NCBI GenBank assembly: GCA_016867835.1
Contig: VGIQ01000002.1
Location: 2,953-66,952, forward strand
Direction: 5' to 3'
From: Calditrichota bacterium
GTDB taxonomy: Bacteria > Electryoneota > AABM5-125-24 > Hatepunaeales > Hatepunaeaceae
DNA length: 64,000 nucleotides
Part shown: positions 12,826 through 58,199 of the stretch, piece by piece
Position numbering within the stretch: position 1 is the stretch's first letter
Layout of the letters: each line of letters opens with the position of its first letter
Notes under the pieces: model-generated
Told to the model about the DNA's origin: nothing
Database searches by the model: none
The model's input: the letters and a program-made list of their open reading frames with translations, nothing else
Program-made: the position numbers and the translations under genes

Positions 12826-15800
12826 TTACCGGACGAGCACCGCCTTCTGGCTGGCCTCGAAATTCCCGGCGCGCATCTTGATGATGTAGATGCCCGAGGT
12901 GAGGCCTTCGGCATTCCAGTTCAGTTCATACTGCCCGGCTTGCAGCGAACCGGTCTGGAGTGTGGCGACCTTGCGGCCGTGCATATCCCAGACGGCGATC
13001 TCGACTGCTTCCGAATGCGGCAGCCCGAACTTCAGCGTCGTGCCGCTGTTGAACGGATTCGGGTACGCCGGCGCCATCGTGAAGACCTGCGGAATCTCGG
13101 GTTGAGACGACTGCTTCACTTCAAGCGGCGGGATGTTGAACCGGAACGGCGCATTAGCCGCTCGCGACAGCACCCGCGCGGAGTCGAAAGCGCTCACCCA
13201 CCACTCGATCGCCTGGGCGATATGCCGGTTGTCCTCCCGACGCTGCCGGGTGAGGGTGTCGAGTATCGGCTGGAACGGCAGCGGCGGCAGACGCAAGGTG
13301 TCGAGGTTGCGGGACGTATCGGGGGCGAAGGGATACTGCACGGTATCGCCGGCCGCGCCACCAACCAGACGGAAGGTTACGGCATAGAATGTCGTATCGA
13401 CCTCCCACCGGTTCGGGATCGCACTCGACCAGGCAAACTGCAGCGATCCAAGCGAGTCGGGATCATACTGGATGGCGTGGTTGTTAGGCGGATCCACCAG
13501 ATTGAAGGCTTGCGGCGGGTCGTTGAGCGGCCGCACCCGGAAGTTGAAGGCGTAGGCTGAATCTCCGCCTTGCCCTTCGGCGACCCCGGTTGAGTCGAGC
13601 GCCCAGACCTGCACCCGCGCTTCGCCGTTCTCCAGATGCGCGGTGTTGAAGTTAGGCGTCAACTGGTAGGTGAACCGCTTCTGGGCGTCGTTCGTGATGA
13701 CGAACCGGAAAAGCCGCACCAGATTCGTATCCTGCGGTGTGGCAACGAAGAAACTGCACGACGCGGTCCGGTTATCGACGTCGGAAATGAGCGCCACCAG
13801 ACTGGCCGCGATCTGAATCACCGGCTCGGGGTTATTGTTGACGGTGGTATCCTCGCGGACGTTCCGGTTGGCAATGGCGTTGGCGCGATAGCCCGGGCGG
13901 TCGTTGACGTGCTCCACATTTACAAGGAAAGCGACAGTATCACCCACTGCCCCGTCGTGACCGCGCACCCGCACCCGCAGCGGCATGTCGTAGTTGTGCG
14001 TCGAATCGCGGGTGAAGAAGTTAGCGGTCGGCTGAGCCGAGAGGATGCCGTTGTTGATCTGCAACTGCAACGGCGCCGGCGGCGCGATGAGTTGGAACTG
14101 GATGTTTTGCCCGTCGGGGTCCTGCCAGAGGCCGTTCAGGTCTTGAATGTCCTCCCGCGCCTGATCCTCGCGCATTTCAACATCCTGCAGGTCGCGCTGG
14201 CGCACCGGGGGCCGGTTCACATCGGCAATGCGCAGATCGACCCGAATCTGGTCCGTAGCGTTGGCGCGATCGGTCACCGTGAACTGCGGCGTATAGTTGC
14301 CCGACTCGTTGAACTGCGGAGTCCAGACAAAGGTCATCGAACCGTCGCCGTTGTCGGCGAACTGCGGACCGTCCTGCGGCAAGCCGCCCCGGTCATTCAT
14401 CGTCCAGACCAACTGGTTGGCTTGATCTTCGACATCCTGGGCACTGAATGAGAACCGCATTTCGACGCCTTCCCGGCCGTCCCGACGCACCTGGGCGCTG
14501 TCGGGAGCGATCACCGGGTTGTCGTTGACGGCGTTGACTACCACCGCAAACTGATAGAGCGTCTCCCCTCCCCGGCCATCGCGGGCGAAGAGCGAGCAGG
14601 CGATCTGGCCGTTGAAGTTGAGAGCCGGCTTGATCCGCAGTTCCGGACGGTTGTTCCGGACCATAATCCGGAGCGAGTCGAGTTGCTGCGGGTCGCGCCG
14701 ACGCACTTCATAACTGAGCGCGTCGCCGTCAGGATCACGGAACATCGTATCGACGAGGGCGTAGGTCGCGACGGCCGCATCCTCGTTCATTGTAACCCGG
14801 TTGTCAGCAAAAGCCCCGATCCGTTGCGGCACGCGGTTGACGTCGGCGATGTTGATCACCGCCGTAGCCTGATCCCGCTGGTTGTTGTTGAACGCGCTGA
14901 AGTAGAGTTTATACTGACCGGATGCGTCGAAGTTGGCATCCCACTGGAAGTTCGCGGTGTTGTTGCGGTTGTCGGCGAATTGAATATTGCCGCGGTTGGC
15001 GTTGGGCAGATCGATGAGCCGCCACTGGTTGTTTTGGAAAACTTGGGAACTATCCCACGCGAACGCCATTTGGCCCGGAGCGTTGGCAAGCGTCAACTGG
15101 AACGCTGCGCGCTCGTTCTCCCGAATGTTGACCGCGTTCGGCGGGTTGACCCGGAAGACGTTGGCGACATTGAGCGTGATTGCGGTAAAGTCGTTGGCAG
15201 TCCAGTTAAGTTCGCCTTCGACGACCTCAATCTCAGGCTCGTATTCCCGTCGCTGGGAGGCATCCCAAATCCGGAACGTCATCTCTTCGCCGGCCCGGAA
15301 GCCGTTGATCAGGATTCGCTCGTCGGCGTCGTCGCCCCACGCCGAGAGGCCGACGCCTTCGCCCGGGTTGGTGACGATGCCCGCTCCGGCGCAGTGCCCG
15401 GCGGGAGTGAAGACCGCAAACTCGTCGTTGACGTCGGCCGGCGCACCGCCCATATTGAACTCGACCGCCAGCACGCTATGGTTCTGGTCGGTCTCAAAAT
15501 ACTGGAAGTGGAAGGGCTGGCCCTGATTGTTCAGGATATTGGTGCCCGAGCCGCAGGGATTGAAGGGGAATTGCGGACGGCGCGCATCATCGCTAAAGAC
15601 AGTCAGAATGCCCTCATAAGCGAAGACCCGTGCCGGCTCGAAGGTCACTTCGACATCGAAGCCTTCGCCCGGACGGACGACGCGATCCTGATTGTTGAAG
15701 TTGTGGGTGATGGTGTTGAAGTTCGAGGCGATCCGGCTGACCGTCAGATCGACGCCGCCATTGTTGCTGATCCGGAAGGTGTGCCTGACGGCTTGCCCTA

Positions 15801-36390: not shown

Positions 36391-36460
36391 AAGTGCTCAA
36401 GTGAGCACGTGCTCGAGAACTCAAGTGGTCAAGTGCTCAAGTGAGCAAGTGAGTAAGTAA
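36391..36460. promoter_or_regulatory. Repeated palindromic operator-like element between the peroxiredoxin and rubrerythrin-like genes.
   Basis: A 17-bp unit AAGTGCTCAAGTGAGCA occurs twice (36391-36407 and 36431-36447). Each contains the inverted repeat GTGCTCA-ag-TGAGCAC. Extra CAAGTG(A) half-sites are at 36422-36429 and 36448-36458. It lies 15-80 nt upstream of the rubrerythrin-like start (36377). Confidence 0.5.
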
Positions 36461-37123: not shown

Positions 37124-39940
37124 TTATCGCATCACGACCACCTTTATTGCTCTGCGCGCCTGCGGGGTGGTTGCTGTCAAATAATATATGCCGGTGGGAA
37201 CCCCTTCCCAATCGACTGCGACCCGTATCTGCGTCATGCTGACAGCAAGAGGTTCAAGGTGCGAGGACCATACGACCCGGCCGGCTATATCGAAAAGTTG
37301 CAGGTGTGTCGGGAGGCCCTCCAGTATGGTGAACGCGACCGTCCCGCGTCCATTGAGCGGGTTGGGGTGCAGCGAGAGGGTCAGGTCGCTTGAAGCCGCC
37401 ACCGGAGGAGGCTGCACCCGGGCAACCGTCCCGGTGAGTTCGATCCGGCCGATTTCCCAGCCGCCCATTTCGACTCCCTCATCGGCCCCGAAGCGGAGCC
37501 GCACTTTTACCGGACCGGACGGACCGCCTAACAAGACTCGATCCTCCCGCCAGTCGAAACTGCCGTTCCAGCACGGTCCGCCGGGGAACGAGCCGTTATC
37601 GACCGCGACGCCGTTGTAGCCGTTTAATGGCGCTGTGCGCCGCCATCCTTCGCCGCGGTTCACTTCGACGATGCCGCCGTCGTAAAGTTGCTCGGCTTCC
37701 ATCCGGTGGTAGATGCTTAGCCCCGCATCGCTGCCGAAGAGCATGAGCGGCAGTTCAAGCGCGCCGTCCGACATCGGCGGGTAGGAGGTAGTATCGGGCC
37801 CGCCAAAGGCGAGACCGCCGGCAAAATCGGGCCCGCCTGCGGTGTCCCACCTCCAGACCGAACGATAGGTCTCCTGAACTGGATAAATTACGGCCCAATA
37901 AGCCGAATCGTTCAAATTGGGTGCAAACCGAAAGTCGCTCCGGCAAGGCAGAATCATCATCCCGATCGAGCGGACGACCCCACCGGCTGCCGCTCCGAGT
38001 TGGGTGACGACGCCGCCCGAAAGGCGCGGCTCACCGATAATGCTGAATCCCACCGGAACGCTTACGCCGCGAGCGCCGGGAGCAATCGCAGGCAAGGCCG
38101 TTTCGGCAGCATCGAATACCAGAGCACTATCGAAAGAGAGCAGCGTAAGGCGTCCGCCGGGACGGAAGCCGTCGCCTCCGTCATTGAAAAGGCTCACGAG
38201 GAGACTACCAGACTCGCCCGGCTCGACGAGGTCGTTGCCGTCGCCGGTAGTCTCGTCGAACTGGAAGCCTCCGGCGACCAGCCGGGAACTGCGGACTTCG
38301 AGGAACACCCGGTCATACCAGATTTCGCCGTCGTCGGGCTGAAAGACGGCATCGAGCCGCACCCGGTGCCGGTCGGGTGTCTCCGGTGCGATGCGCAGCC
38401 GGAAGCCTTCAACGAAAACTTCGTCGCCGGACTCGATCTCACCGATACGGCTCGCCGCGGCGATCAGTTCGACCGCCGGATCGTTCGTCGTCAGTTCAAC
38501 GCGGATGTCACTTAAAGTCTCGCGGGCGAGGTTGTTCACCAGCAAGGTCATATCGATCTGCTCGCCGGCGTCGGCAATGCCGTCATTGTCGCCGGCGCTG
38601 TCATCGACCCAGATGAACTCGGCGGCTCGCAACCCCCGCCGCAGTTTCAGGGTGGGATCGCCGATGTGCGTCATCCCGTAGAACCACGATCGCGCCCAGT
38701 TGACGTGCCCCGGCTCGCGTCCATGCAGGGCGAACCACCGGCGAAGGGATTCGCCGAAACTAATGCCGTTTGCCATGTGGCGATAATAGTCGTCGAAGAA
38801 GAGCATCCCGCCGACCTTGGCCGGACCGACTGCGCCAAGCGCCGAGGGACTCCGCAAGGCATAGAGCGCCCCCATACAGAGGTTGCGCGAGAGGTTCATC
38901 ACCGAGCAAGCGAAGAGATTATAGAATAGAACGTTGGGAGCAACCTCCTCGCGCAGATTCCGGAACCGGAAATAGTCGAAAACGCGCCGGTTCTGGGTGT
39001 GAAAAGCGTGGGCATCGGCGGTCGAATGGACGGCCACCTGCATCAGTTCGAAGCCGTCGCCGGTCAGGTAGTCGCGGTAGGTCGAAGCGCTTGTAGTCTC
39101 AGGCTCCTCTACCAGTTCGACCCGGCCAAACGCGAGACCGATATCCCCGGCCCATTGGTTGGCGACAATTCTCCAGTCGTCATCGATGAATGCAACCGCG
39201 CGATGCGGCAAGCGGTGTGCGCCCCGCCGGTAAGCCGATATCCGGTCGAGATATAGCGCCGTGGTGGTGTCTTCGCGGATGCGGCTCAGGTTGTAAGCCG
39301 CTATCCGTCCGAGCCAGATGTCGGGCGCCCAGGCACCGCTATGGACATCGTATATGCCGTTGCCCGAAGTGTCCTGCCATTCGCCGTCGAGGTCCATATA
39401 GAAGAGGTCGATAGGGAACTCGTGCAAACGCGGGTTGTCGGGGACGTTTTCATTATAGAAGTATTCGCGATCCTCAAACCAGGCGAGAGCGATCTCGCCG
39501 CAGAGGACGACGCCCACGAGGTCATCACCGCCCAATTCGATCAAGGTCGCTTTCACGTCAGCAGGCGAGCCACCTTCCAAATTGACCTGGACGACGTCCC
39601 AGCCGTCGGCGGCGACTTCCTGAGCGTAGCGCTCAAAGCGCTCCTCCATCTGGTTGAACAAGTTGTTGTTGACGGCGATGACGACGGTGCCCTCTTCGTC
39701 GCGACGCGGGAATCGGCGGACGCCTTCGAAGCGGGAGATGCCGAAAACCTCGAGCGGACGTTCGGGGAACCTATTCAGGTATTCGGCGCGGGTGGGAAGC
39801 GGCGCTCCGGTCGGATCGCGGGACGGCTCGAGGTGGTAGCGCGACGGCGGAGCCGCAAAGACGAATGCAGAATGTAGAATAAAGAATGCAGAATAAAGAA
39901 CTAATGCTCGCTTGCAGAACTTCGTGTAACTATGGAGCAC
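37124..39940 (-). CDS. Secreted cysteine-protease-like protein (peptidase C25/gingipain-like catalytic region) with a T9SS C-terminal domain. The start is uncertain.
   Basis: The track ORF runs to 40180, but its first ~80 codons come from a low-GC repeat region. A GTG at ~39938-39940 gives the signal peptide VLHSYTKFCKRALVLYSAFFILHSAFVFAAPP. A candidate His/Cys pair lies in QVAVHSTADAHAF and FYNLFACSVMNL. The CTD is SLHPNPLNGRGTVAFTILEGLPTHLQLFDIAGRVVWS...GIYYLTATTPQARRAIKVVVMR. The C25 assignment is tentative. Confidence 0.5.
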   Translation of the reverse strand: MLHSYTKFCKRALVLYSAFFILHSAFVFAAPPSRYHLEPSRDPTGAPLPTRAEYLNRFPERPLEVFGISRFEGVRRFPRRDEEGTVVIAVNNNLFNQMEERFERYAQEVAADGWDVVQVNLEGGSPADVKATLIELGGDDLVGVVLCGEIALAWFEDREYFYNENVPDNPRLHEFPIDLFYMDLDGEWQDTSGNGIYDVHSGAWAPDIWLGRIAAYNLSRIREDTTTALYLDRISAYRRGAHRLPHRAVAFIDDDWRIVANQWAGDIGLAFGRVELVEEPETTSASTYRDYLTGDGFELMQVAVHSTADAHAFHTQNRRVFDYFRFRNLREEVAPNVLFYNLFACSVMNLSRNLCMGALYALRSPSALGAVGPAKVGGMLFFDDYYRHMANGISFGESLRRWFALHGREPGHVNWARSWFYGMTHIGDPTLKLRRGLRAAEFIWVDDSAGDNDGIADAGEQIDMTLLVNNLARETLSDIRVELTTNDPAVELIAAASRIGEIESGDEVFVEGFRLRIAPETPDRHRVRLDAVFQPDDGEIWYDRVFLEVRSSRLVAGGFQFDETTGDGNDLVEPGESGSLLVSLFNDGGDGFRPGGRLTLLSFDSALVFDAAETALPAIAPGARGVSVPVGFSIIGEPRLSGGVVTQLGAAAGGVVRSIGMMILPCRSDFRFAPNLNDSAYWAVIYPVQETYRSVWRWDTAGGPDFAGGLAFGGPDTTSYPPMSDGALELPLMLFGSDAGLSIYHRMEAEQLYDGGIVEVNRGEGWRRTAPLNGYNGVAVDNGSFPGGPCWNGSFDWREDRVLLGGPSGPVKVRLRFGADEGVEMGGWEIGRIELTGTVARVQPPPVAASSDLTLSLHPNPLNGRGTVAFTILEGLPTHLQLFDIAGRVVWSSHLEPLAVSMTQIRVAVDWEGVPTGIYYLTATTPQARRAIKVVVMR

Positions 39941-40175
39941 TCTTGCACGCGCAGGCGGGCATCCAGTCGAGGAATGCTGGTCTGGTTTCCCGCCTTCGCG
40001 GGAACGACTATCATAATACAACCTCTCATTGCAATGAGTCATTATGAAAGCAGAACGATAGGCGATAGAGTCTCCCCTTGACCTATTCCTGCCAAGAGAA
40101 GTCTCAGCATTCATCAATCTGCAATTTGCAATTTGCATTCTGCATTCCGCATTATTAATTCTACATTCTTCATTC
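39861..40175. repeat. Low-GC (~42%) region bounded by inverted A/T-rich repeats (GCAGAATGTAGAATAAAGAATGCAGAATAAAGAA vs TTGCATTCTGCATTCCGCATTATTAATTCTACATTCTTCATTC). It contains the 14-bp perfect palindrome CTCATTGCAATGAG (~40024-40037).
   Basis: Read directly from the sequence. It sits between the ABC ATPase stop (40184) and the C25-like gene. The distal repeat also encodes the hydrophobic core of that gene's signal peptide. Confidence 0.5.
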
Positions 40176-40183
40176 AGCACACT

Positions 40184-48965: not shown

Positions 48966-49123
48966 ACCGGCACTCTGCGGACTTTGCGTCTCTGCGTGAG
49001 ATTATTCATGTGGCTTTGGCAGCTTTGAGCGAGCAGATCCCGCGGTCGCGCTTCATACACCAACACCAGAAGACAAATTGATTCTCCTTATCCAGCGATG
49101 ACCGATGGTAGCCTTCACCCGGC

Positions 49124-49223
49124 GGGTGTTCTCTGTAGCGCCGCCATCTTGGCGGCAAGTCGAAGCCAGCAACGGGTGTTCTTTGTAGCGCCGCCATCTT
49201 GGCGGCAAGTCGAAGCCAGCAAG
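49124..49223. repeat. 2 x 50-bp tandem direct repeat, each unit containing the hairpin GCCGCCA-tct-TGGCGGC.
   Basis: GGGTGTTCTCTGTAGCGCCGCCATCTTGGCGGCAAGTCGAAGCCAGCAAC at 49124-49173 is repeated at 49174-49223 with 2 mismatches. It lies ~160 nt 3' of gyrA. Confidence 0.7.
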
Positions 49224-50867: not shown

Positions 50868-51005
50868 CATGTGAATGGATTGAGAGGCCGTTGTGGGCAG
50901 GCGGGTAAGCATTCCTTATCCGGCTTTAAGCATGCCACCAGACGCCTTCGACTGGTGGCTAACGGATATTGGCTAAAGTGGGGCGAAGGCGTCCCCTTGA
51001 CACTG

Positions 51006-51481
51006 AATTGGTCGGATCGGAATCCGACCCTACGCGACAAATTGGTCGGATCGGAATCCGACCCTACGCGACAAATTGGTCGGATCGGAATCCGACCCTA
51101 CGCGACGAATTGGTCGGATCGGAATCCGACCCTACGCGACGAATTGGTCGGATCGGAATCCGACCCTACGCGACGAATTGGTCGGATCGGAATCCGACCC
51201 TACGCGATGAATTGGTCGGATCGGAATCCGACCCTACGCGACGAATTGGTCGGATCGGAATCCGACCCTATGCGACAAATTGGTCGGATCGGAATCCGAC
51301 CCTACGCGACGAATTGGTCGGATCGGAATCCGACCCTACGCGACGAATTGGTCGGATCGGAATCCGACCCTACGCGACAAATTGGTCGGATCGGAATCCG
51401 ACCCTACGCGACAAATTGGTCGGATCGGAATCCGACCCTACGCGACGAATTGGTCGGATCGGAATCCGACCCTACGCGAAA
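51006..51481. repeat. Tandem array of 14 near-identical 34-bp units, each containing a perfect 8-bp-stem hairpin.
   Basis: The unit AATTGGTCGGATCGGAATCCGACCCTACGCGAC(A/G) repeats head-to-tail with no spacers. Unit starts are 51006, 51040, ... 51448, and only 3-4 variable positions occur over 476 bp. The internal inverted repeat is GGTCGGAT-cgga-ATCCGACC. The period is not a multiple of 3, so the track ORFs 50871.., 50969..51493 and 51280..51756 across it show a 34-aa pseudo-repeat and are artefacts. A 10-bp inverted repeat GACGCCTTCG...CGAAGGCGTC lies immediately upstream at 50941-50993. Confidence 0.9.
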
Positions 51482-51494
51482 AGACACATTTGAA

Positions 51495-52853
51495 ATGGAA
51501 TCTATGCGCATGCCAATTCTCATCCTGCTTTCCCTGCTCCTCGCCGGCGCCGCCGTCGCCCACTTCGGCGCGAAGTTCGAGCCACCGGACGGACGCATCT
51601 ATCACGGCTCGGGCTGGAACTACATCGACAGCCATCGACGCTACGAGGAGATGTTCCCCGGCGACAAACGTCCGCTCATCCTGCAGACCAACGTCTCGAT
51701 TCCCGGCACCCGCGGCACCGACGTCGCTCGACTGGTGCGGGGTATGGAACAGATGATCATCCACCCCGACAGTCAGTTCGTCGAATTCAGCATGCACTGG
51801 CAGGGCCGCGACGCGGCGGTGATGCTCGACTCGATCTACGTCCATACCGACCAGTGGGATCGCTATGTCGATACCCTCGAAATCGCCTTTCGGCGGGTCA
51901 ATCGCCCCTTTTTCCTTCGCCTCGGATTCGAGTTCAACGGGGATTGGAATCCCTATCATCCTTACATCTTTCCCCAGGCTTTTCGCAAACTGGTGATCGA
52001 ACTTCGCCGCCGCGGGATCGACCAGTTCGCGACGGTCTGGTGCTACGAACCGGACGCTCCGGGCGATTTTGCAGACTCAACGCGGCAGGGCTGGAAGTGG
52101 TATCCGGGGGACGATGTCGTCGATTGGTTTGGCCTTGATCTCTTCAACCATGCGCACTTCGATCCCGCCGAGCCCGATTCGCAGCGCGGGCAACTCTCAC
52201 GCAAGGGCAAGAGCGAAGCATTCCTCAGGTTCGCCGAAACGCGGGGCAAGCCGGTCTTTCTGAACGAACTCTCGGCCATCGATATTCAGGCTACGCCCGA
52301 CTCGCTCGACGAAGATCACGCCGACGGGCGTGCCGACTGGGAGGTCTGGTTCGAACCGTTCTTCGATTTCGTCGCTGCACATCCGATCATTAAGGGCTGG
52401 AACTACATCAACGTCGATTGGAACGTCGTCGGTGACTACGGCGAGATGGGCTGGCGCGACGCGAGGCTCGAGATCAATACCTATATTCGCGAGCGTTGGG
52501 TGGCGCAGGTGTCAGGGGACCGGTTCATTCACGCCGGATGGGATATCACCCAAGACCTCGGCGTCCGGGATGGCAGGGCGCCGCTGCCTCGCTTGATGTC
52601 GTTTGAGGCCTGGCCCAATCCCTTCAACGCTCAAATGCGCATCGCGTTCGACCTACCGCATTCGGGGATCGTCAGACTTATGCTGTTCGATCCGTCCGGG
52701 CGCGAGGCAGGGACACTCCTTGGCAGCCGGTGGCTCTCTGCCGGCCGGAATGGACTCACTCTTGATGGTGGTGCGCTGCCGGCAGGCTCCTATATGCTCC
52801 GGCTCGACGCGGGAGGATGGCAGGCTGAGCGGAAGGTGGTAATGATAAAGTGA
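51495..52853 (+). CDS. Secreted glycoside hydrolase (GH26-like) with a T9SS C-terminal domain.
   Basis: The ATG at 51495 (alternatives 51504/51510) gives the MESMRMPILILLSLLLAGAAVA signal peptide. FLRLGFEFNGDWNPY resembles the GH26 RxxHExNGxW acid/base motif. WYPGDDVVDWFGLDLF resembles the GH26 nucleophile region. The CTD is AWPNPFNAQMRIAFDLPHSGIVRLMLFDPSGREAG...GSYMLRLDAGGWQAERKVVMIK. Confidence 0.5.
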   Translation: MESMRMPILILLSLLLAGAAVAHFGAKFEPPDGRIYHGSGWNYIDSHRRYEEMFPGDKRPLILQTNVSIPGTRGTDVARLVRGMEQMIIHPDSQFVEFSMHWQGRDAAVMLDSIYVHTDQWDRYVDTLEIAFRRVNRPFFLRLGFEFNGDWNPYHPYIFPQAFRKLVIELRRRGIDQFATVWCYEPDAPGDFADSTRQGWKWYPGDDVVDWFGLDLFNHAHFDPAEPDSQRGQLSRKGKSEAFLRFAETRGKPVFLNELSAIDIQATPDSLDEDHADGRADWEVWFEPFFDFVAAHPIIKGWNYINVDWNVVGDYGEMGWRDARLEINTYIRERWVAQVSGDRFIHAGWDITQDLGVRDGRAPLPRLMSFEAWPNPFNAQMRIAFDLPHSGIVRLMLFDPSGREAGTLLGSRWLSAGRNGLTLDGGALPAGSYMLRLDAGGWQAERKVVMIK

Positions 52854-53061: not shown

Positions 53062-55089
53062 ATGCGTAAGGTCCTCTTTCTTCTCTTGGCGCTCGTCCTG
53101 GCGGCAGTGCCGCTCCAGGCGCAGGAACATGGCGCGGTCGCCGGTCAGGTCGTCGGCGCCGATGGAGGCGCGATCGGGGGCGCGGTCGTTACGCTCTTCA
53201 TGAATAACCAGCGCATCGGCGAGACGGTCTCGAACGATGAAGGCCGGTTCGGGTTCGAACGCGTTCCGACCGGCGTCGGCGTCGCCTGGGCCGTCGCCAG
53301 GGACATTGGACAGGGATCGGCGCGGGTTGAGGTTGCGGCCGGCCAGGTCAGTAACATCACCATCACCATCAACGTCCAGAATGGCGGAGGGGACGCTTTT
53401 GGCAGGGTCGTCGGGCGGGTGGTCAATCAGGAAGGCGCACCCTGGGCCGGAGCGCATGTAACGCTGGCTGGAAATCAAGGCGTCGTCCAGCAGACCCGCA
53501 CCAACAACGAAGGGCATTTCGCCTTCGATCGTGTTCCGCCGGGAGTCTATGAATGCACCGCGGTCGTCGAAGGTGTCGGCCGAGCGTCGCAGCGGGTCGA
53601 ATCGGTCCGCGCCGGCGTTGCCGAAGTACGGTTGGTGATCGCTGAAGACGACAACGGCGGTGGCGGCGGCGACGACGACCAGTTCGGCCGCGTCGTCGGT
53701 ATCGTCCTGACGGCTGACGGAGCCGCCGTATCAGGTGCGGCAGTGCACCTTTTCCGGGAGAATGACCTTGCGCTGAGAACCGGCACGGACGGGCACGGAC
53801 GCTTCGTCTTTGAGCGCGTTCCGGCGGGTGACTATCGAATCATCGCCGCGCACGACCGGTTCGGTCGCGCCGATGGCGAGGTAGCCGTCGAAGGCGGCGG
53901 CGTAGCCGAAATCCGGCTTGTCCTACAGAACGACAACGGCGGTGGCGGTGACGATCAGTTTGGGCGCGTCGTCGGACGGGTAACCGATCCGGAAGGCAAT
54001 GCCTTCGCCGGTGCCGCAGTCGTCCTCCACGGCGTCAACGGCATCGCGATGCGCACCGGCACCGACGGGCAGGGCGCGTTTGTCTTCGAGCGCGTTCCGG
54101 CCGGCGTCTATGAGATCGTAGCCGACGCCGGAGACCATGGCCGGGCCGGTCAGCGCATCGATGTTGAGGCGGGGGCTGTCGTCGAAGTTCATCTGGTGAT
54201 CGAAGGCAACGGCGGCGGGGGCGACGATCAACCCGGCCGGGTCGTTGGCCAGGTGGTTAATGCCGACGGGCAGCCTCTCGGCGGCGTCAGGGTCTTCCTG
54301 GTAGGGATCAATCATCGCTTCGCTCAAGAAAGACAAGCCGACCGCGAGGGCCGGTTCGTTTTCGAGCGCGTTCCTGCCGGGCTTTATAATGTCGGAGCCG
54401 ATGCCGGTGACCACGGGCATGTAATCCAGCAGATCGAAGTGGCAGCCGGAGCGGTCGTCGAAGTGCGGCTTGTGCTTGGCCGCAACGGCGGAGGCGGCGG
54501 CGATGACGAACAACGTTACGGCCGGGTGAGCGGCGTTGTTGTCGATGGCGAAGGCAACCCCATTGAGGGAGCCATCGTCACGCTCGAAAATGACCGCCAT
54601 AATGCAGAAACCGCAACCGGCGAAGACGGGCACTTCCTCTTCCCGTGGGAGCCGGTCGGCCACTATCTGATCACGGCAACGGCCGAAGATGTCGGCGACG
54701 CCGTCGCGCGGATCGGGATTCGCGCCGGACTCGAGACGGTTGTCCGGCTGGTGATTCACAATCGCGAAGGCCTCCGGCCGGCGGGCGACCCCGAGGCGGT
54801 GAACCCGGAAGTGACTCCGCTTCCGCTTGGCACCGGGCTGGTCAGCGTCTATCCGACGCCGTTTAACCCTGCTGCCACCGTGACCGTAGTGCTGCCCATA
54901 GCCGCGAGCGGCCGGGTGGCGCTCTACGACCTCCATGGCCGCGCGGTGCAAACGCTCTACGAAGGGACGTTGCAGGCGGGTCGGAGTTCGTTCAGTCTGC
55001 CGGGGAGGAACCTCGATGCCGGGCTGTACATAGTCTCGGCGGAGACGTCGGTGGGCCGGTTCACGGCGCGGGCGGTGCTGGTTAGGTAG
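53062..55089 (+). CDS. Secreted protein of six tandem carboxypeptidase-regulatory-like (CarbopepD_reg) domains with Gly/Asp linkers and a T9SS C-terminal domain.
   Basis: MRKVLFLLLALVLAAVPLQAQ signal peptide. The six ~95-aa units each begin GRVVG(R/Q)VV..G....GA.V.L and contain T(D/N)(N/G)EG(H/R)F.FERVP.G.Y. They are separated by NGGGGDD linkers. The CTD is VSVYPTPFNPAATVTVVLPIAASGRVALYDLHGRAVQTL...GLYIVSAETSVGRFTARAVLVR. Confidence 0.7.
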   Translation: MRKVLFLLLALVLAAVPLQAQEHGAVAGQVVGADGGAIGGAVVTLFMNNQRIGETVSNDEGRFGFERVPTGVGVAWAVARDIGQGSARVEVAAGQVSNITITINVQNGGGDAFGRVVGRVVNQEGAPWAGAHVTLAGNQGVVQQTRTNNEGHFAFDRVPPGVYECTAVVEGVGRASQRVESVRAGVAEVRLVIAEDDNGGGGGDDDQFGRVVGIVLTADGAAVSGAAVHLFRENDLALRTGTDGHGRFVFERVPAGDYRIIAAHDRFGRADGEVAVEGGGVAEIRLVLQNDNGGGGDDQFGRVVGRVTDPEGNAFAGAAVVLHGVNGIAMRTGTDGQGAFVFERVPAGVYEIVADAGDHGRAGQRIDVEAGAVVEVHLVIEGNGGGGDDQPGRVVGQVVNADGQPLGGVRVFLVGINHRFAQERQADREGRFVFERVPAGLYNVGADAGDHGHVIQQIEVAAGAVVEVRLVLGRNGGGGGDDEQRYGRVSGVVVDGEGNPIEGAIVTLENDRHNAETATGEDGHFLFPWEPVGHYLITATAEDVGDAVARIGIRAGLETVVRLVIHNREGLRPAGDPEAVNPEVTPLPLGTGLVSVYPTPFNPAATVTVVLPIAASGRVALYDLHGRAVQTLYEGTLQAGRSSFSLPGRNLDAGLYIVSAETSVGRFTARAVLVR

Positions 55090-55127
55090 GTTTGGGCATC
55101 TGACACCAGACTTCAGATCCAGCCAGA

Positions 55128-55152
55128 GGGGCAGGTGGAAATCACCTGCCCC
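55128..55152 (+). terminator. Intrinsic terminator: GGGGCAGGTG-gaaat-CACCTGCCCC followed by TTTGATATT.
   Basis: A perfect 10-bp stem is read from the sequence 39 nt after the stop of 53062..55089. The T-rich tail is on the + strand. Confidence 0.6.
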
Positions 55153-55261
55153 TTTGATATTAGTGTTGGCGGATAGACCGAGACCTGGCTATAGTGACTT
55201 GAAATGCGTCTCTACAGCGTTGTGTGAGGCATCCAATGAGGGACTCAGCCCGCCTAATGTG

Positions 55262-57706
55262 TCAGCGCATCAAAACGGCCTTTACGGTGCGGGAATGGGA
55301 GCCGGTTTGAAGGCGGAGGAAAAAGATGCCGGAGGGAAGTGTGAAAGTGCTAAAGTGCGAAAGTGCGAAAGTATGGCTCCCGGGGGATAGCGGGCCGTCG
55401 TGGAGGCGGAGGATTTCCCGGCCGTCTATCGCGTAGAGGCCGATCCGGACGGGCATGAGACCCCCCACCTGCGCTCTTGGAGGGCGGACATTCTTGTCCG
55501 CCCTTAGGGCAGGCAAAAATGCCTGCCCTCCAAGATCAACTGTCACCGTCGCCTTATCGTTAAACGGATTAGGAGCAATCGTAAGCGAGAGTGGCGCGTC
55601 ATCCCCGCTTCCCCCCTCGTCATCCCCGCTTCCCGCCTCGTCATCCCCGCGCAAGCGGGGATCCAGTCCAGCACTTAGAGAATGGACATAGACAACCCAA
55701 ACTTGCACATCCTCCTCCCATTCTTCCTCGCCGACCTGCTCCCGCGCATACCCACTTACTATGTATCTGCCCGTGTCTTGAAATGAAATGGACAAAGTGG
55801 ACTCGATGGACATAGTGTCGGCTTCATTCAGCGTCCACCAGAACTGAATCGAGTCGTTGTTGGCATTGAAGGGAGTTAATTCGAAGGTCGTTTCCTGACG
55901 AGGCTCGAGGGAGATTTCAGCGAGATTCGGCTCATAAGCCCGAATGACTCCCCGCACCTGAATCGCCCATTGGACGGAATCGGCCGGCACGGGATCGACG
56001 TTCGGATCGAAGACCTTTGCTTTCAGAGCATAGCCACCCGTCCGGTCGAACGCGTAGGACCGGATTCCGATCCGGTCATCCCCTGCCACTTCCTCCCACC
56101 TCACCGCCGCTGAGTCGTAAATCATCCACTCATATCGCAGATTCTCCATATCTCCGATGTAGGCAATGGAGTCGAGGGCGAAGTCGATCTCGCTGTTGCG
56201 CTGAACGGTGAGGGATAGATGCTCAGGTGTGTACTCCACTATCAAAAGTTCCATAACAGCAACATTCCATCCAATGACGCGTGATTGCTCGCCGGAAGTA
56301 ACCCGGCACTCTATTCGTGTTTGTCCCAGTTCATCAAATTGAATGGTTGCTGATGAATCGCGATCGATCACCTGCCCAGCAGCATTCCGCCATAGATAGG
56401 ATATGGCCGCACCATTCTGGTTTCGCGCCTGCACAGCAAACGTCTGGCGCGTGCCAATCAACAGCGACAGCGTCGTATCGCGCGGTGACCATGAAATGAA
56501 CTGGGGGCCAATGACTTCGCGCTCTAATTTGATCAGCAGCCCGTTCTTGCCCTCGTTGTTGCGCTCAAAGGTGGCGGTGCCGGCACCATAGAGCGACCCA
56601 TCGCTGCCCTGAATGACCCCGCCGAAAGAATGTGACCGCCCTACCCCCTGTCCAAACCCGTTTTCGGGAAGCAGAAAGTATATTTCCTTCCAAAGTTCGT
56701 CGCCGTTGGGGCCGATACGGACTACTGCCGGGTGATGGGTGTCGCCTTGATCGCGCGGGAACCAGAAAAATCCCGCCAATATAAAGCCGCCTTCGGCTAC
56801 CCGTGCTGCCGCATTACATTGATCCATACCCCATAGTTGGCGATTGGCAAAACTGTAGCGGCGTCCCCACATTAGGTCGCCGTTGCTATCGACCAGAACC
56901 GCAGCCATATCTATTGGCTCCGGCTGTCCTCTATTATCGCCGGTAAAACCGGCGATCAGGAACTGGCCCTGGCCGGTGGAAGTCATGGTCATAGATAAGT
57001 TACTGACGTCAATCCGATAGGAATTCCACCAGATCACTTCGCCATTATCGGATCTTATTTTGAAGGCCAAGAACTGGTATCCGGGCACATTTTCAATAAG
57101 CACATCACCTCCGACAATCACTCCATCTTCGGCTTCTCGCAGGCCCACAAGATGATGTCGTGTTCCTAACGAATACTCCCGCTCCCAGATCAACTCTCCT
57201 TCACCATCGATACAAATGACCACGCCAAGATAATCGCCATTTTCAATACTGGTTATGAGAAACCGGCCATCCTTCAATTCAATTATTGCGGTTCCTCGTC
57301 CTCGACGAAATGTTCGAAACCAGATCTCCTCACCATCAGAATCTACCCGCATAACTGCAATACGATTACTGCGATCTCTATTTTCACCTATGCCAGCGCA
57401 GGCTAGGAAGTCGCCATTATCCGCCTCGATGACACTTGCCAAACTTCTCAAACCGCCCTCCGCCTCATATTGTCTATCCCATATAATTTGCCCATCATCG
57501 TCGAGTCTAAGCAATCGGCCGCAACGAACGCTGTTTCCATTGGTCGCATATCCGCTCATTATCAGACCATCGTTTGGCACAGAATAGACATCCAAAATGC
57601 CGTCATCTCCTCCCGAGTCATACATCCGCATCCATAAGGGATTTGGCTGACCAAAAGAGGCGAATGCCGTCAGGATTACAACGAATATTGAGGTATGGAC
57701 TTTCAT
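55262..57706 (-). CDS. Secreted SBBP-type beta-propeller plus Ig/PKD-like domain protein with a T9SS C-terminal domain carrying an internal insertion.
   Basis: The ATG at 57704-57706 gives the MKVHTSIFVVILTAFASFGQ signal peptide. The track ORF starts 120 nt upstream. Repeats of DG..(I/L)..GYT.......D..IW..Y type (DGLIMSGYATNGNS...DDDGQIIWDRQY; DGRFLITSIENGD...GEGELIWEREY; ...) form the propeller. Ig-like domains follow, then an acidic GSGDDE linker. The CTD APNPFNDKATVTVDL-[GGQAFLPALRADKNVRPPRAQVGGLMP]-VRIGLYAIDGREILRLHDG...GIFFLRLQTGSHSRTVKAVLMR contains a ~27-aa insertion relative to the other CTDs in this window. Confidence 0.65.
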   Translation of the reverse strand: MKVHTSIFVVILTAFASFGQPNPLWMRMYDSGGDDGILDVYSVPNDGLIMSGYATNGNSVRCGRLLRLDDDGQIIWDRQYEAEGGLRSLASVIEADNGDFLACAGIGENRDRSNRIAVMRVDSDGEEIWFRTFRRGRGTAIIELKDGRFLITSIENGDYLGVVICIDGEGELIWEREYSLGTRHHLVGLREAEDGVIVGGDVLIENVPGYQFLAFKIRSDNGEVIWWNSYRIDVSNLSMTMTSTGQGQFLIAGFTGDNRGQPEPIDMAAVLVDSNGDLMWGRRYSFANRQLWGMDQCNAAARVAEGGFILAGFFWFPRDQGDTHHPAVVRIGPNGDELWKEIYFLLPENGFGQGVGRSHSFGGVIQGSDGSLYGAGTATFERNNEGKNGLLIKLEREVIGPQFISWSPRDTTLSLLIGTRQTFAVQARNQNGAAISYLWRNAAGQVIDRDSSATIQFDELGQTRIECRVTSGEQSRVIGWNVAVMELLIVEYTPEHLSLTVQRNSEIDFALDSIAYIGDMENLRYEWMIYDSAAVRWEEVAGDDRIGIRSYAFDRTGGYALKAKVFDPNVDPVPADSVQWAIQVRGVIRAYEPNLAEISLEPRQETTFELTPFNANNDSIQFWWTLNEADTMSIESTLSISFQDTGRYIVSGYAREQVGEEEWEEDVQVWVVYVHSLSAGLDPRLRGDDEAGSGDDEGGSGDDAPLSLTIAPNPFNDKATVTVDLGGQAFLPALRADKNVRPPRAQVGGLMPVRIGLYAIDGREILRLHDGPLSPGSHTFALSHFSTFTLPSGIFFLRLQTGSHSRTVKAVLMR
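55474..55534. repeat. Compound palindromic (REP/MITE-like) element lying in frame inside the T9SS CTD coding sequence of 55262..57706.
   Basis: The outer stem is CTTGGAGGG...CCCTCCAAG (55476-55484 / 55525-55533). It encloses two hairpins: GGGCGGACA-ttct-TGTCCGCCC and AGGGCAGGCA-aaaa-TGCCTGCCCT. The GGGCAGG/CCTGCCC stem type also forms the terminator at 55128-55152. Confidence 0.55.
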
Positions 57707-57776
57707 GATGGTGATGTGCTTGATTGTGCAGTCGGGCGGGCGGGGGGCGCCCTTGGCTCCCCGCCCGCCTGTTTGC

Positions 57777-58199
57777 TTACTGACGTTCTTCGACTTTCCA
57801 GTCGAATGTCTGCGGATCCGTAGCATCGTAGGTCTGCAAATCGCCTTCTGGCTCGAAGCCGGTATAGAGACCGGAGGCGGTCAGCCGTACTTGCCAGCGG
57901 TACGAAACAGATTGGAAGTCAGCGTAGTAATCAGCCTCGATCTGAGTTGCATAGACCCAGTCGCCCCAAACACCTGGCGCGACTTCTATACGAAACTGGA
58001 CCGAGGCGTCATACTGGCCGACCCACTCTTCGTCAATTAACTCGAGAATTCGAGTCTGCAGCCGAACTGCCTGAGCATCGGATGGTGCTAGCAGTCCTAC
58101 AATAAGCAGAATTGCCGAAGCAATGAATGTGATGCGACGTAGTGTCACTGTGGAATCTCCGTTGATTGTCGTTGATGAGATTGCCTCGCCTGTCTGCAA
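57777..58199 (-). CDS. Small secreted protein of unknown function.
   Basis: 140 aa. The hydrophobic segment ITFIASAILLIVGLLAPSDAQA looks like a signal peptide. The start may be an internal GTG. I recognised no known domain. It lies 71 nt upstream of the SBBP propeller gene. Confidence 0.35.
   Translation of the reverse strand: MQTGEAISSTTINGDSTVTLRRITFIASAILLIVGLLAPSDAQAVRLQTRILELIDEEWVGQYDASVQFRIEVAPGVWGDWVYATQIEADYYADFQSVSYRWQVRLTASGLYTGFEPEGDLQTYDATDPQTFDWKVEERQ

Follow-up and report, generated by a model that had tools for sequence, protein, structure and literature searches.

An in-frame doublet of REP-type palindromes within a type IX secretion sorting domain of a Calditrichota bacterium

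The locus and its host gene

The stretch of DNA analysed here, which we call the window, comprises 64,000 nucleotides of a Calditrichota bacterium (contig VGIQ01000002.1 of assembly GCA_016867835.1, positions 2,953 to 66,952), and within it a compound palindrome, composed of two units of the repetitive extragenic palindrome (REP) type, lies in frame inside the coding sequence for a C-terminal sorting domain (CTD) of the type IX secretion system (T9SS). The open reading frame (ORF) that hosts the palindrome is predicted to encode a T9SS cargo protein. Seven further T9SS type-A CTD proteins, some of them very large (1878-2916 aa), are encoded between positions 12826 and 55089, where a preliminary description of this DNA had spoken of six; this part of the window is a dense secretome region of a genome of the FCB (Fibrobacteres, Chlorobi and Bacteroidetes) type. 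The features of the host gene are as follows.

55262 to 57826, minus strand: host ORF, 854 aa when read from its first ATG, a predicted T9SS cargo that has a repeat region at the N-terminus as well as Ig-like domains
55265 to 55597, minus strand: T9SS type-A CTD of 111 aa that hosts the insert, identified by hidden Markov model (HMM), AlphaFold and Foldseek
55466 to 55531, minus strand: the 22 inserted codons, GGQAFLPALRADKNVRPPRAQV, delimited by alignment of CTDs

A copy of this locus that is 99.9% identical to the window (L001) carries the host gene as a JGI gene call of 787 aa. The full-length protein has no match in Pfam at E <= 0.01; the SBBP propeller label given to it previously was not reproduced, and a weak DUF5122 propeller hint is all that was seen in its place. 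Its CTD is like those of the T9SS type-A family (TIGR04183/PF18962) in its PNPFN start, its seven-strand beta-sandwich and its K-x-V-L-x-R C-terminus, and unlike the canonical domain in two respects: a segment later in the domain is encoded by a tandem repeat, and between strands 1 and 2 there is an excursion of 22 residues that lowers the HMM match to less than the curated cutoff.

Alignment of the eight CTD proteins of the window shows this 22-column insertion to be unique to the host CTD, where it falls between strand 1 (TVTVDL) and strand 2 (VRIGLYA); the position is the one first described, the size being 22 residues by alignment and not about 27. In all nine orthologues (25-32% identity) the loop between these strands is the short, canonical one. 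As encoded, the isolated CTD scores 20.2 bits with TIGR04183, below the cutoff of 23, in a match restricted to residues 52-107; after deletion of the 22 residues the score is 27.6 bits and the match is full-length, and the PF18962 score rises likewise from 17.5 to 22.7 bits. The AlphaFold model of the CTD (pLDDT 81.7, pTM 0.73) retains the beta-sandwich, the insert appearing between strands E19-24 and E50-57 as an excursion of low confidence (pLDDT 52-58) that has a short helix, and its top Foldseek matches in the PDB are mirolase (8qb1), NucA (8glk_D), RgpB (7pq4) and PorZ (5m11), with RemZ in the translocon also found. In this prediction the beta-sandwich stays whole and the insert forms a floppy loop at the surface.

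Anatomy of the element

The element and its two units, scored with the covariance model R1 that is described below, are:

55475 to 55535, no strand: compound palindrome in which two REP units, separated by a 3-nt spacer, form an inverted doublet in tail-to-tail orientation, with the outer stem TCTTGGA/TCCAAGA
55474 to 55507, plus strand: REP unit 1, CTCTTGGA-GGGCGGACA-TTCT-TGTCCGCCC-TTAG, which holds hairpin H1 (R1, 48.9 bits, E 1.3e-11)
55503 to 55536, minus strand: REP unit 2, ATCTTGGA-GGGCAGGCA-TTTT-TGCCTGCCC-TAAG, which holds hairpin H2 (R1, 40.1 bits, E 3.9e-9)

From 55474 to 55536 the sequence reads TCTTGGA-GGGCGGACA-TTCT-TGTCCGCCC-TTA-GGGCAGGCA-AAAA-TGCCTGCCC-TCCAAGA. An inverted-repeat search delimits H1 (55481-55504) and H2 (55506-55529), each with a perfect 10-bp stem and a 4-nt loop, and a 30-nt inverted repeat (55475-55504 / 55506-55535, 83% complementary) that spans the element. 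As single-stranded DNA the element takes a three-stem fold of -29.5 kcal/mol, compared with -10.9 +/- 2.6 in shuffles (z -7.3; none of 200 dinucleotide shuffles is as stable), and the mRNA-sense strand takes the same fold as RNA (-50.5 kcal/mol, z -7.4). Both the repeat search and the fold bear out the three-stem compound palindrome with an outer stem of the preliminary description; its in-frame placement within a T9SS CTD likewise holds, the doublet having a length of 61 bases and the net addition to the gene being 66 nt within the minus-strand ORF.

The two units lie one on each strand with their tags facing outward. Unit 2 differs from unit 1 at two stem positions, the changes being compensating, and unit 1 shares a 35-nt identity with a copy (L094) in a metagenome-assembled genome (MAG) of Caldithrix. 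The flanks on either side of the element (...ACAGTTGA and GCGCAGG...) have no direct repeat in common, so that no target-site duplication is seen, nor were terminal inverted repeats of a parent insertion sequence (IS) found; the element consists of the two REP units only. There is no T or U run after either hairpin on either strand, as an intrinsic terminator would have, and an Rfam scan of the element returned only sub-threshold, miRNA-like noise.

A dispersed family of REP-type units

One genome per GTDB species was scanned with the pattern GGAGGGCRGRCANNNNTGYCYGCCCT, and at least 120 loci were returned, against a chance expectation that we estimate from composition at about 1-10 matches. 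At least 12 loci each are found in the Caldithrix MAG CAYHEC01 and in MAG JALGVR01, and among the matches listed there are several loci each in a Planctomycetaceae MAG, a Verrucomicrobiota MAG, Candidatus Hatepunaea and others. The family occurs in MAGs of Calditrichota, Planctomycetota, Acidobacteriota and other groups, dispersed and mostly intergenic, with copies lying between genes or upstream of true starts. Candidate in-gene copies among the genome loci were rejected: nearly all of the ORFs that span them are spurious G/C-rich frames, or the copy precedes the real start. The stem sequences had no match in the searchable literature, and a scan of viral contigs with the bare hairpin was uninformative, giving 54 generic G/C hairpins, none with the tag.

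The unit is 28 nt long, CYTGGA-GGGCRGRCA-YTYY-TGYCYGCCC, with a 9-bp G/C-rich stem, and both halves of the window element fit the oriented consensus CYTGGA-GGGCGGACA-YTCY-TGTCCGCCC. Two properties of the family were not imposed by the search pattern. The YTCY loop is present in 74 of the 133 hairpins among the matches listed, compared with about 3% estimated by chance; and when these matches are oriented by their pyrimidine-rich loop the GGA tag is on the 5' side in 70 cases against 22 (binomial p = 5e-7). The covariance model R1 was built from 52 units taken only from other genomes; applied to the window it returned the two units of the doublet at 48.9 and 40.1 bits, its next best match there scoring 12.8 bits. 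A terminator candidate close to the host gene, whose stems the preliminary description had matched to those of the element, does not belong to the family: the hairpin at 55124-55156 has only GGGCAGG in common with it, scores 12.5 bits with R1 (E 0.27, at background level) and is not conserved downstream of the paralogues.

Tail-to-tail doublets are also found elsewhere in the family. Three loci (L064, L093 and L144), and a fourth (L110) by a looser stem criterion only, have them with a 24-nt spacer, and an intergenic doublet with a 7-nt spacer (L163) is closest to the compact form of the window. In two loci from the same lake sample (L183 1605-1688 and L186 3476-3559) a 24-nt-spacer doublet sits in an identical segment of about 129 nt, intergenic in L186, with unrelated flanks on either side; such a pattern agrees with a unit that is mobile and dispersed and exceeds the doublet in size. 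The tetranucleotide correlation of L183 and L186 to the window, 0.93, is the highest of more than 180 loci and within the range of the window's own 5-kb chunks, and these two loci suggest the presence of dispersed copies in the organism or in one of its close relatives.

These copies bear on an origin of the element within the host gene itself, by template switching or inverted duplication during replication and with no insertion of a pre-existing repeat. Such an origin would account for the element being a near-perfect inverted repeat of a 30-nt half, and for the compact 3-nt-spacer form being met only in the host gene family; each half, however, is a full family unit with its orientation-specific CYTGGA tag, and identical units are present in unrelated intergenic contexts, both in other genomes and in the same lake sample. 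We therefore judge it improbable, while a variant in which one unit was inserted and then underwent local inverted duplication as a second step is possible.

The same stem is also found with other tags. Sister variants with the same stem and a GGTAGGGC tag (L067 and the GTAG-tagged L106) were collected, and in a Bacteroidetes MAG (SH-MAG12; L141 2974-3183 and L160 3561-3772) hairpins of the form AACGGA-GGGCGGACA-TTCC/TCCA-TGTCCGCCC make up direct tandem arrays with a period of 78-79 nt, resembling a CRISPR layout yet without variable spacers.

One of these sister loci provides the link to a transposase. On a 2.7-kb contig of an Acidobacteriota MAG (L106, 850-1451), an ORF for a Y1 transposase like the REP-associated tyrosine transposases (RAYTs) lies between inverted hairpins of the same stem family; it matches PF01797 (Y1_Tnp) at 34.8 bits (cutoff 23) and E. 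coli RayT at 1.2e-5 by phmmer. The hairpins are GTAG-tagged, GGTA-GGGCAGACA-TTCC-TGTCTGCCC ... GGACAGACA-AGAA-TGTCTGTCC-TACC; a Y1 gene flanked by family hairpins is seen at this one locus only, and for the related GTAG variant. A jackhmmer search for further RAYTs among the collected loci returned L106 only, and there is no Y1 or RAYT transposase ORF within the window. An ORF between two direct REP copies at another locus (L145) was considered and, by inspection, is no transposase.

Distribution and age of the insertion

The preliminary description had spoken of an element that landed in a coding sequence, with specificity to a lineage or strain to be confirmed; a recent or strain-specific landing is not supported. 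A metagenome scan with CYTGGAGGGCRGRCATTYTTGYCYGCCC returned 12 loci, five of which (L176, L178, L179, L180 and L182, the last with two copies) come from the Lake Tanganyika samples Ga0194127 and Ga0194119; these five carry the compact doublet at the same position in homologous CTD genes, with 86-91% DNA identity to the window, and L182 consists of two tandem paralogues on one contig, both with the doublet. Protein searches, which are independent of the DNA pattern, added P0017/L188, P0018 (the same as L182a), P0021/L190, which is at a different genomic location, and P0019, P0020, P0022, P0023 and P0024, all of which bear the peptide GG(R/Q/K)A(F/V)LP(A/V)LRADKNVR(P/L)P(R/S)(A/V/E)Q(V/M). Altogether the doublet is present at the same codon position in at least 11 homologous gene copies of 68-91% identity from Lake Tanganyika metagenomes, and it is absent from orthologues at 25-38% identity, which have short loops. 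Since all members of this family of tandem and dispersed paralogues and orthologues retain the doublet, the insertion predates their diversification; it is shown to be old, tolerated and inherited by a small gene family, neither recent nor strain-specific.

The same distribution disposes of an artefact of assembly or sequencing, such as a chimeric join at a hairpin, to which we give next to no credence: metagenome assemblies can break or join at strong palindromes, and L176 does start inside the element, but the same in-frame structure is met in no fewer than nine independent contigs, which come from four JGI samples and differ in the divergence of their flanks, and this refutes it.

The gene family is otherwise a mosaic, in which three linker types and two mid-CTD cassettes are found in varied combinations. 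Exchange of CTD cassettes and tandem paralogy are both in evidence: a sister gene, P0025, has an upstream domain near-identical to that of the family, yet a different, insert-free CTD, and there are tandem copies in L180 (1594-1840) and L182, compared with one in the window. Between L182a and the window, 16 of 65 positions differ in the segment upstream of the element and none of 73 downstream. The element itself was considered as a recombination breakpoint and rejected, as MaxChi places the significant breakpoints about 45 nt upstream, at the junction of linker and CTD, and 105-143 nt downstream, in the mid-CTD cassette, with none in the element.

Sequence conservation of the insert

The ratio of nonsynonymous to synonymous divergence (pN/pS) is 0.16 in the upstream domain, 0.33 in the CTD and 0.28 in the 22 inserted codons, and the host genes are shown to be under purifying selection. 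The palindrome has roughly a third of the synonymous divergence seen elsewhere in the gene: pS is 0.145 in the inserted codons and 0.37-0.41 in the flanks, and the 190 other 22-codon windows of the aligned 3' part of the gene all lie higher, with a minimum of 0.25 and a median of 0.42. Ascertainment bias was considered as the source of this low value and rejected: the four sequences that were found without the DNA pattern also give a pS of 0.145, with none of 111 windows as low, and the half of the element that was not used as search key is equally low. The low pS indicates that the palindrome is not decaying in the manner of ordinary or neutral coding DNA. The contrary possibility raised at the outset, that the same loop would be encoded by non-palindromic DNA in unrelated genomes, was not borne out either: in the relatives that have the loop, the palindrome continues to encode it, with synonymous sites of unusual conservation.

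These data bear on whether the element is simply an ordinary loop of this lineage, its 22 residues selected as a peptide and its palindromic DNA incidental. The peptide is well conserved (pN 0.04), and the length between strands beta1 and beta2 does vary in distant orthologues: P0031 has a longer loop, and in P0030 the region has expanded into the tandem peptide AYPTRQPVN-AYPTRLTVN-AYPTRLTV, from which it follows that the strand 1-2 loop also gains sequence by other routes. Selection on a peptide, however, leaves the synonymous constraint unexplained, as it does a fold of z -7.3 and halves that both match an intergenic repeat family of other phyla in tag, stem and loop; the family-model scores largely refute this account, and we regard it as very improbable.

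We infer that the hairpins are kept up either by selection on the structure of DNA or RNA or by processes intrinsic to palindromes, that is, templated repair or conversion, including conversion among paralogues. The former would make of the doublet an exapted structure, a REP doublet by origin that is now kept for a cis role of the double hairpin in the cargo genes, with a translational pause, a site of RNase III/E processing or mRNA stabilisation, and a protein-binding DNA site as candidate roles. The reduced synonymous divergence, found also in the sequences from protein searches, argues for it, and so in part do the stems: H1 is perfect in nine of nine DNA copies, and among the four variable stem positions of H2 three are transitions that leave A-U, G-U or G-C pairs on the sense strand. 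The outermost pair covaries, being C-G in three copies and U-A in two, but with so few sequences this is not significant (79 of 500 shuffles reach the same). Against it stand a transversion in L190 that breaks one pair of H2, a further arm change implied by P0023 and P0024, and the lack of a U-tract, of any known motif and of any family in Rfam; moreover, palindrome-templated repair or gene conversion among the paralogues would give equally low diversity without function. An exapted structure of this kind is accordingly a tentative proposal, and in our view somewhat unlikely.

Other repeats in the window

Two further repeats lie in the linker of the host gene, just upstream of the CTD.

55641 to 55664, minus strand: a second, unrelated REP-like palindrome, GGATCCCCGC-TTGC-GCGGGGATGA, in frame and encoding LDPRLRGDD
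55597 to 55650, minus strand: a 21-nt tandem repeat in 2.6 copies, a reiteration of the linker palindrome's right arm (GDDE-G-SG repeats)

At the same linker site the paralogues L182a and L182b have a stem-compensated variant, GGATTCCGGC-TTTC-GCCGGAATGA (ATTCCGGC/GCCGGAAT), which encodes LDSGFRRNDD, while the linker of L178 and L190 is unrelated to the palindrome linker of the window; the copy number of the 21-nt repeat varies among the paralogues. A further palindrome of the linker type, GGTTTCCCGC-CTTC-GCGGGAACGA, is found at 39984-40007, probably in intergenic DNA, close to the 5' end of ORF 37124-40180. The tandem-repeat-encoded segment of the CTD (55337-55372) consists of an 8-nt repeat, AAGTGCGA, in 4.5 copies that encode HTFALSHFSTFT; L178 and L188 have a different, 18-nt tandem (GVTSGGG x2) in its place, and a similar repeat, AAGTGCTC, is present at 36391-36451.

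The hairpin at 55124-55156, rejected above as a family member, is a G/C hairpin of 11 bp with TTTGATATT after it, and lies where the ORFs 53062-55089 (plus strand) and 55262-57826 (minus strand) converge; it is an ordinary intrinsic-terminator candidate for the plus-strand gene.

GTAG-tagged repeats are found at two places. On the minus strand, between a tyrS-like ORF and a GH26/CTD gene, 14 head-to-tail GTAG-tagged REP units (51005-51479; GTAG-GGTCGGAT-TCCG-ATCCGACC) form an array with a 34-nt period and 97% identity; the genome of the window thus holds GTAG REPs as well. An ORF call (50871-52853) reads through this array as NWSDRNPTLRDELVGSESDPTR repeats and is probably spurious. Downstream of a gyrA-like ORF (49123-49222) there are two tandem 50-nt units, each with a GTAG-tagged hairpin, GTAG-CGCCGCCA-TCT-TGGCGGC.

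Discussion

The explanation that we favour, with a probability of roughly 0.8, is that the element is a REP doublet, with the architecture known as REPIN (REP doublet forming hairpins) or BIME (bacterial interspersed mosaic element), that entered the CTD loop in frame, is old and inherited, and resides in host genes that have been maintained. A Y1 transposase of the RAYT type acting in trans would multiply the units of the family as single-stranded hairpins, and one doublet would have entered, or have been captured in, the DNA for an exposed loop between strands 1 and 2 of the T9SS type-A sorting domain. With 66 nt gained in all, and an element that is open in four of its six frames, the reading frame survived with 22 residues added. 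More speculatively, the 3-nt spacer may have come from an in-frame loss of 21 nt out of the common 24-nt-spacer form.

Several observations weigh against this interpretation. No allele of the same CTD with an empty site turned up, the closest relative that lacks the insert (P0025) having a wholly different CTD, and the term insertion is consequently drawn from distant orthologues and the family consensus and not from a before-and-after pair. No second copy of the hairpins or of the unit was found elsewhere in the 64-kb window, and the placement of L183 and L186 in the same genome as the window is suggested by composition and the common sample only. Because the units for training R1 were collected by means of a pattern taken from the window, independent evidence is limited to the loop, the orientation of the tag and the outer flank; the tag of the family here is GGAG, within CYTGGAGGGC, and the canonical GTAG/CGTC tag of REPs is absent. 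The 3-nt-spacer form is met only within the host gene family, which leaves transposition of the exact compact form conjectural, and no RAYT gene of this organism is known. Finally, the low pS is a descriptive result, obtained on a small number of related sequences with windows that overlap.

The units of REP/REPIN-RAYT systems are short tagged palindromes, dispersed, occurring as inverted doublets and associated with a Y1 transposase (Bertels and Rainey, 2011, PMC3116915; Di Nocera et al., 2013, PMC3733652). The family described here is like them in having as its unit a short, G/C-rich palindrome, tagged at one end, which in the genomes with many copies is dispersed and for the most part extragenic, in the pairing of units as inverted doublets able to fold into a larger hairpin, and in the hairpins of the same stem family that flank the Y1 transposase gene of L106. 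It is unlike them in that the window copy has its GGAG tag in place of GTAG/CGTC and a spacer of 3 nt instead of tens of nt, and is intragenic, fixed and common to a whole paralogue family.

REPs wholly within ORFs are already known, more than half of them as dimers or groups encoding 20-30 residues (PMC3733652), and the Rickettsia palindromic elements (RPEs) are the classic in-frame palindromic insertions in genes (reviewed in PMC10969869); with intragenic REP dimers and in-frame RPEs both described, the window element is of a known general type. The likeness to RPEs is one of behaviour only, namely an in-frame insertion at a surface site compatible with the fold, which adds a peptide and is retained in relatives; RPEs are about 100-150 bp long, are found in Rickettsia only and belong to different sequence families, whereas the window element is 61-66 nt, is a recognisable REP doublet and comes from a free-living bacterium of the FCB type.

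[quoted passage not shown] The window element is like these in being a small non-autonomous palindrome, such elements occasionally lying in or being fused with ORFs and being able to form RNA hairpins processed by RNase, and unlike them in lacking parent-IS terminal inverted repeats, a target-site duplication and such a length. Where the preliminary description spoke of a REP/MITE-like element comparable to Correia and RUP, the dispersed REP-type palindromic family and the similarity of behaviour therefore stand, the MITE designation does not, and a REP doublet like those of REPINs and BIMEs, of a RAYT-type family, is the better description. What is new here is the host domain, a T9SS sorting signal, together with the lineage, the GGAG-tagged family, the fixation across paralogues and the measured synonymous constraint.

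The strongest consequence that could be drawn, and one that we think unlikely, is domestication: the double hairpin of the REP doublet would be under selection at the nucleic-acid level in the coding region of T9SS cargo genes, where it would act in cis immediately ahead of translation of the sorting domain, possibly as a translational pause, in the processing or stabilisation of mRNA, or as a DNA-binding or recombination site. If true, it would turn a "selfish" extragenic repeat into a functional intragenic element.

As a by-product, the analysis describes a REP family, CYTGGA/GGTA-GGGCGGACA-YTCY-TGTCCGCCC, that is common to several phyla and includes copies in the cultured Caldithrix abyssi. 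The element itself is a clean case outside the Proteobacteria of a REP-type repeat turned coding, dated by its presence across a paralogue family. That the strand 1-2 loop of the T9SS CTD tolerates 22 extra residues is of practical use for the engineering of CTD fusions, and the low synonymous divergence raises a testable question, namely whether intragenic REP hairpins are kept by function or by palindrome-templated repair.

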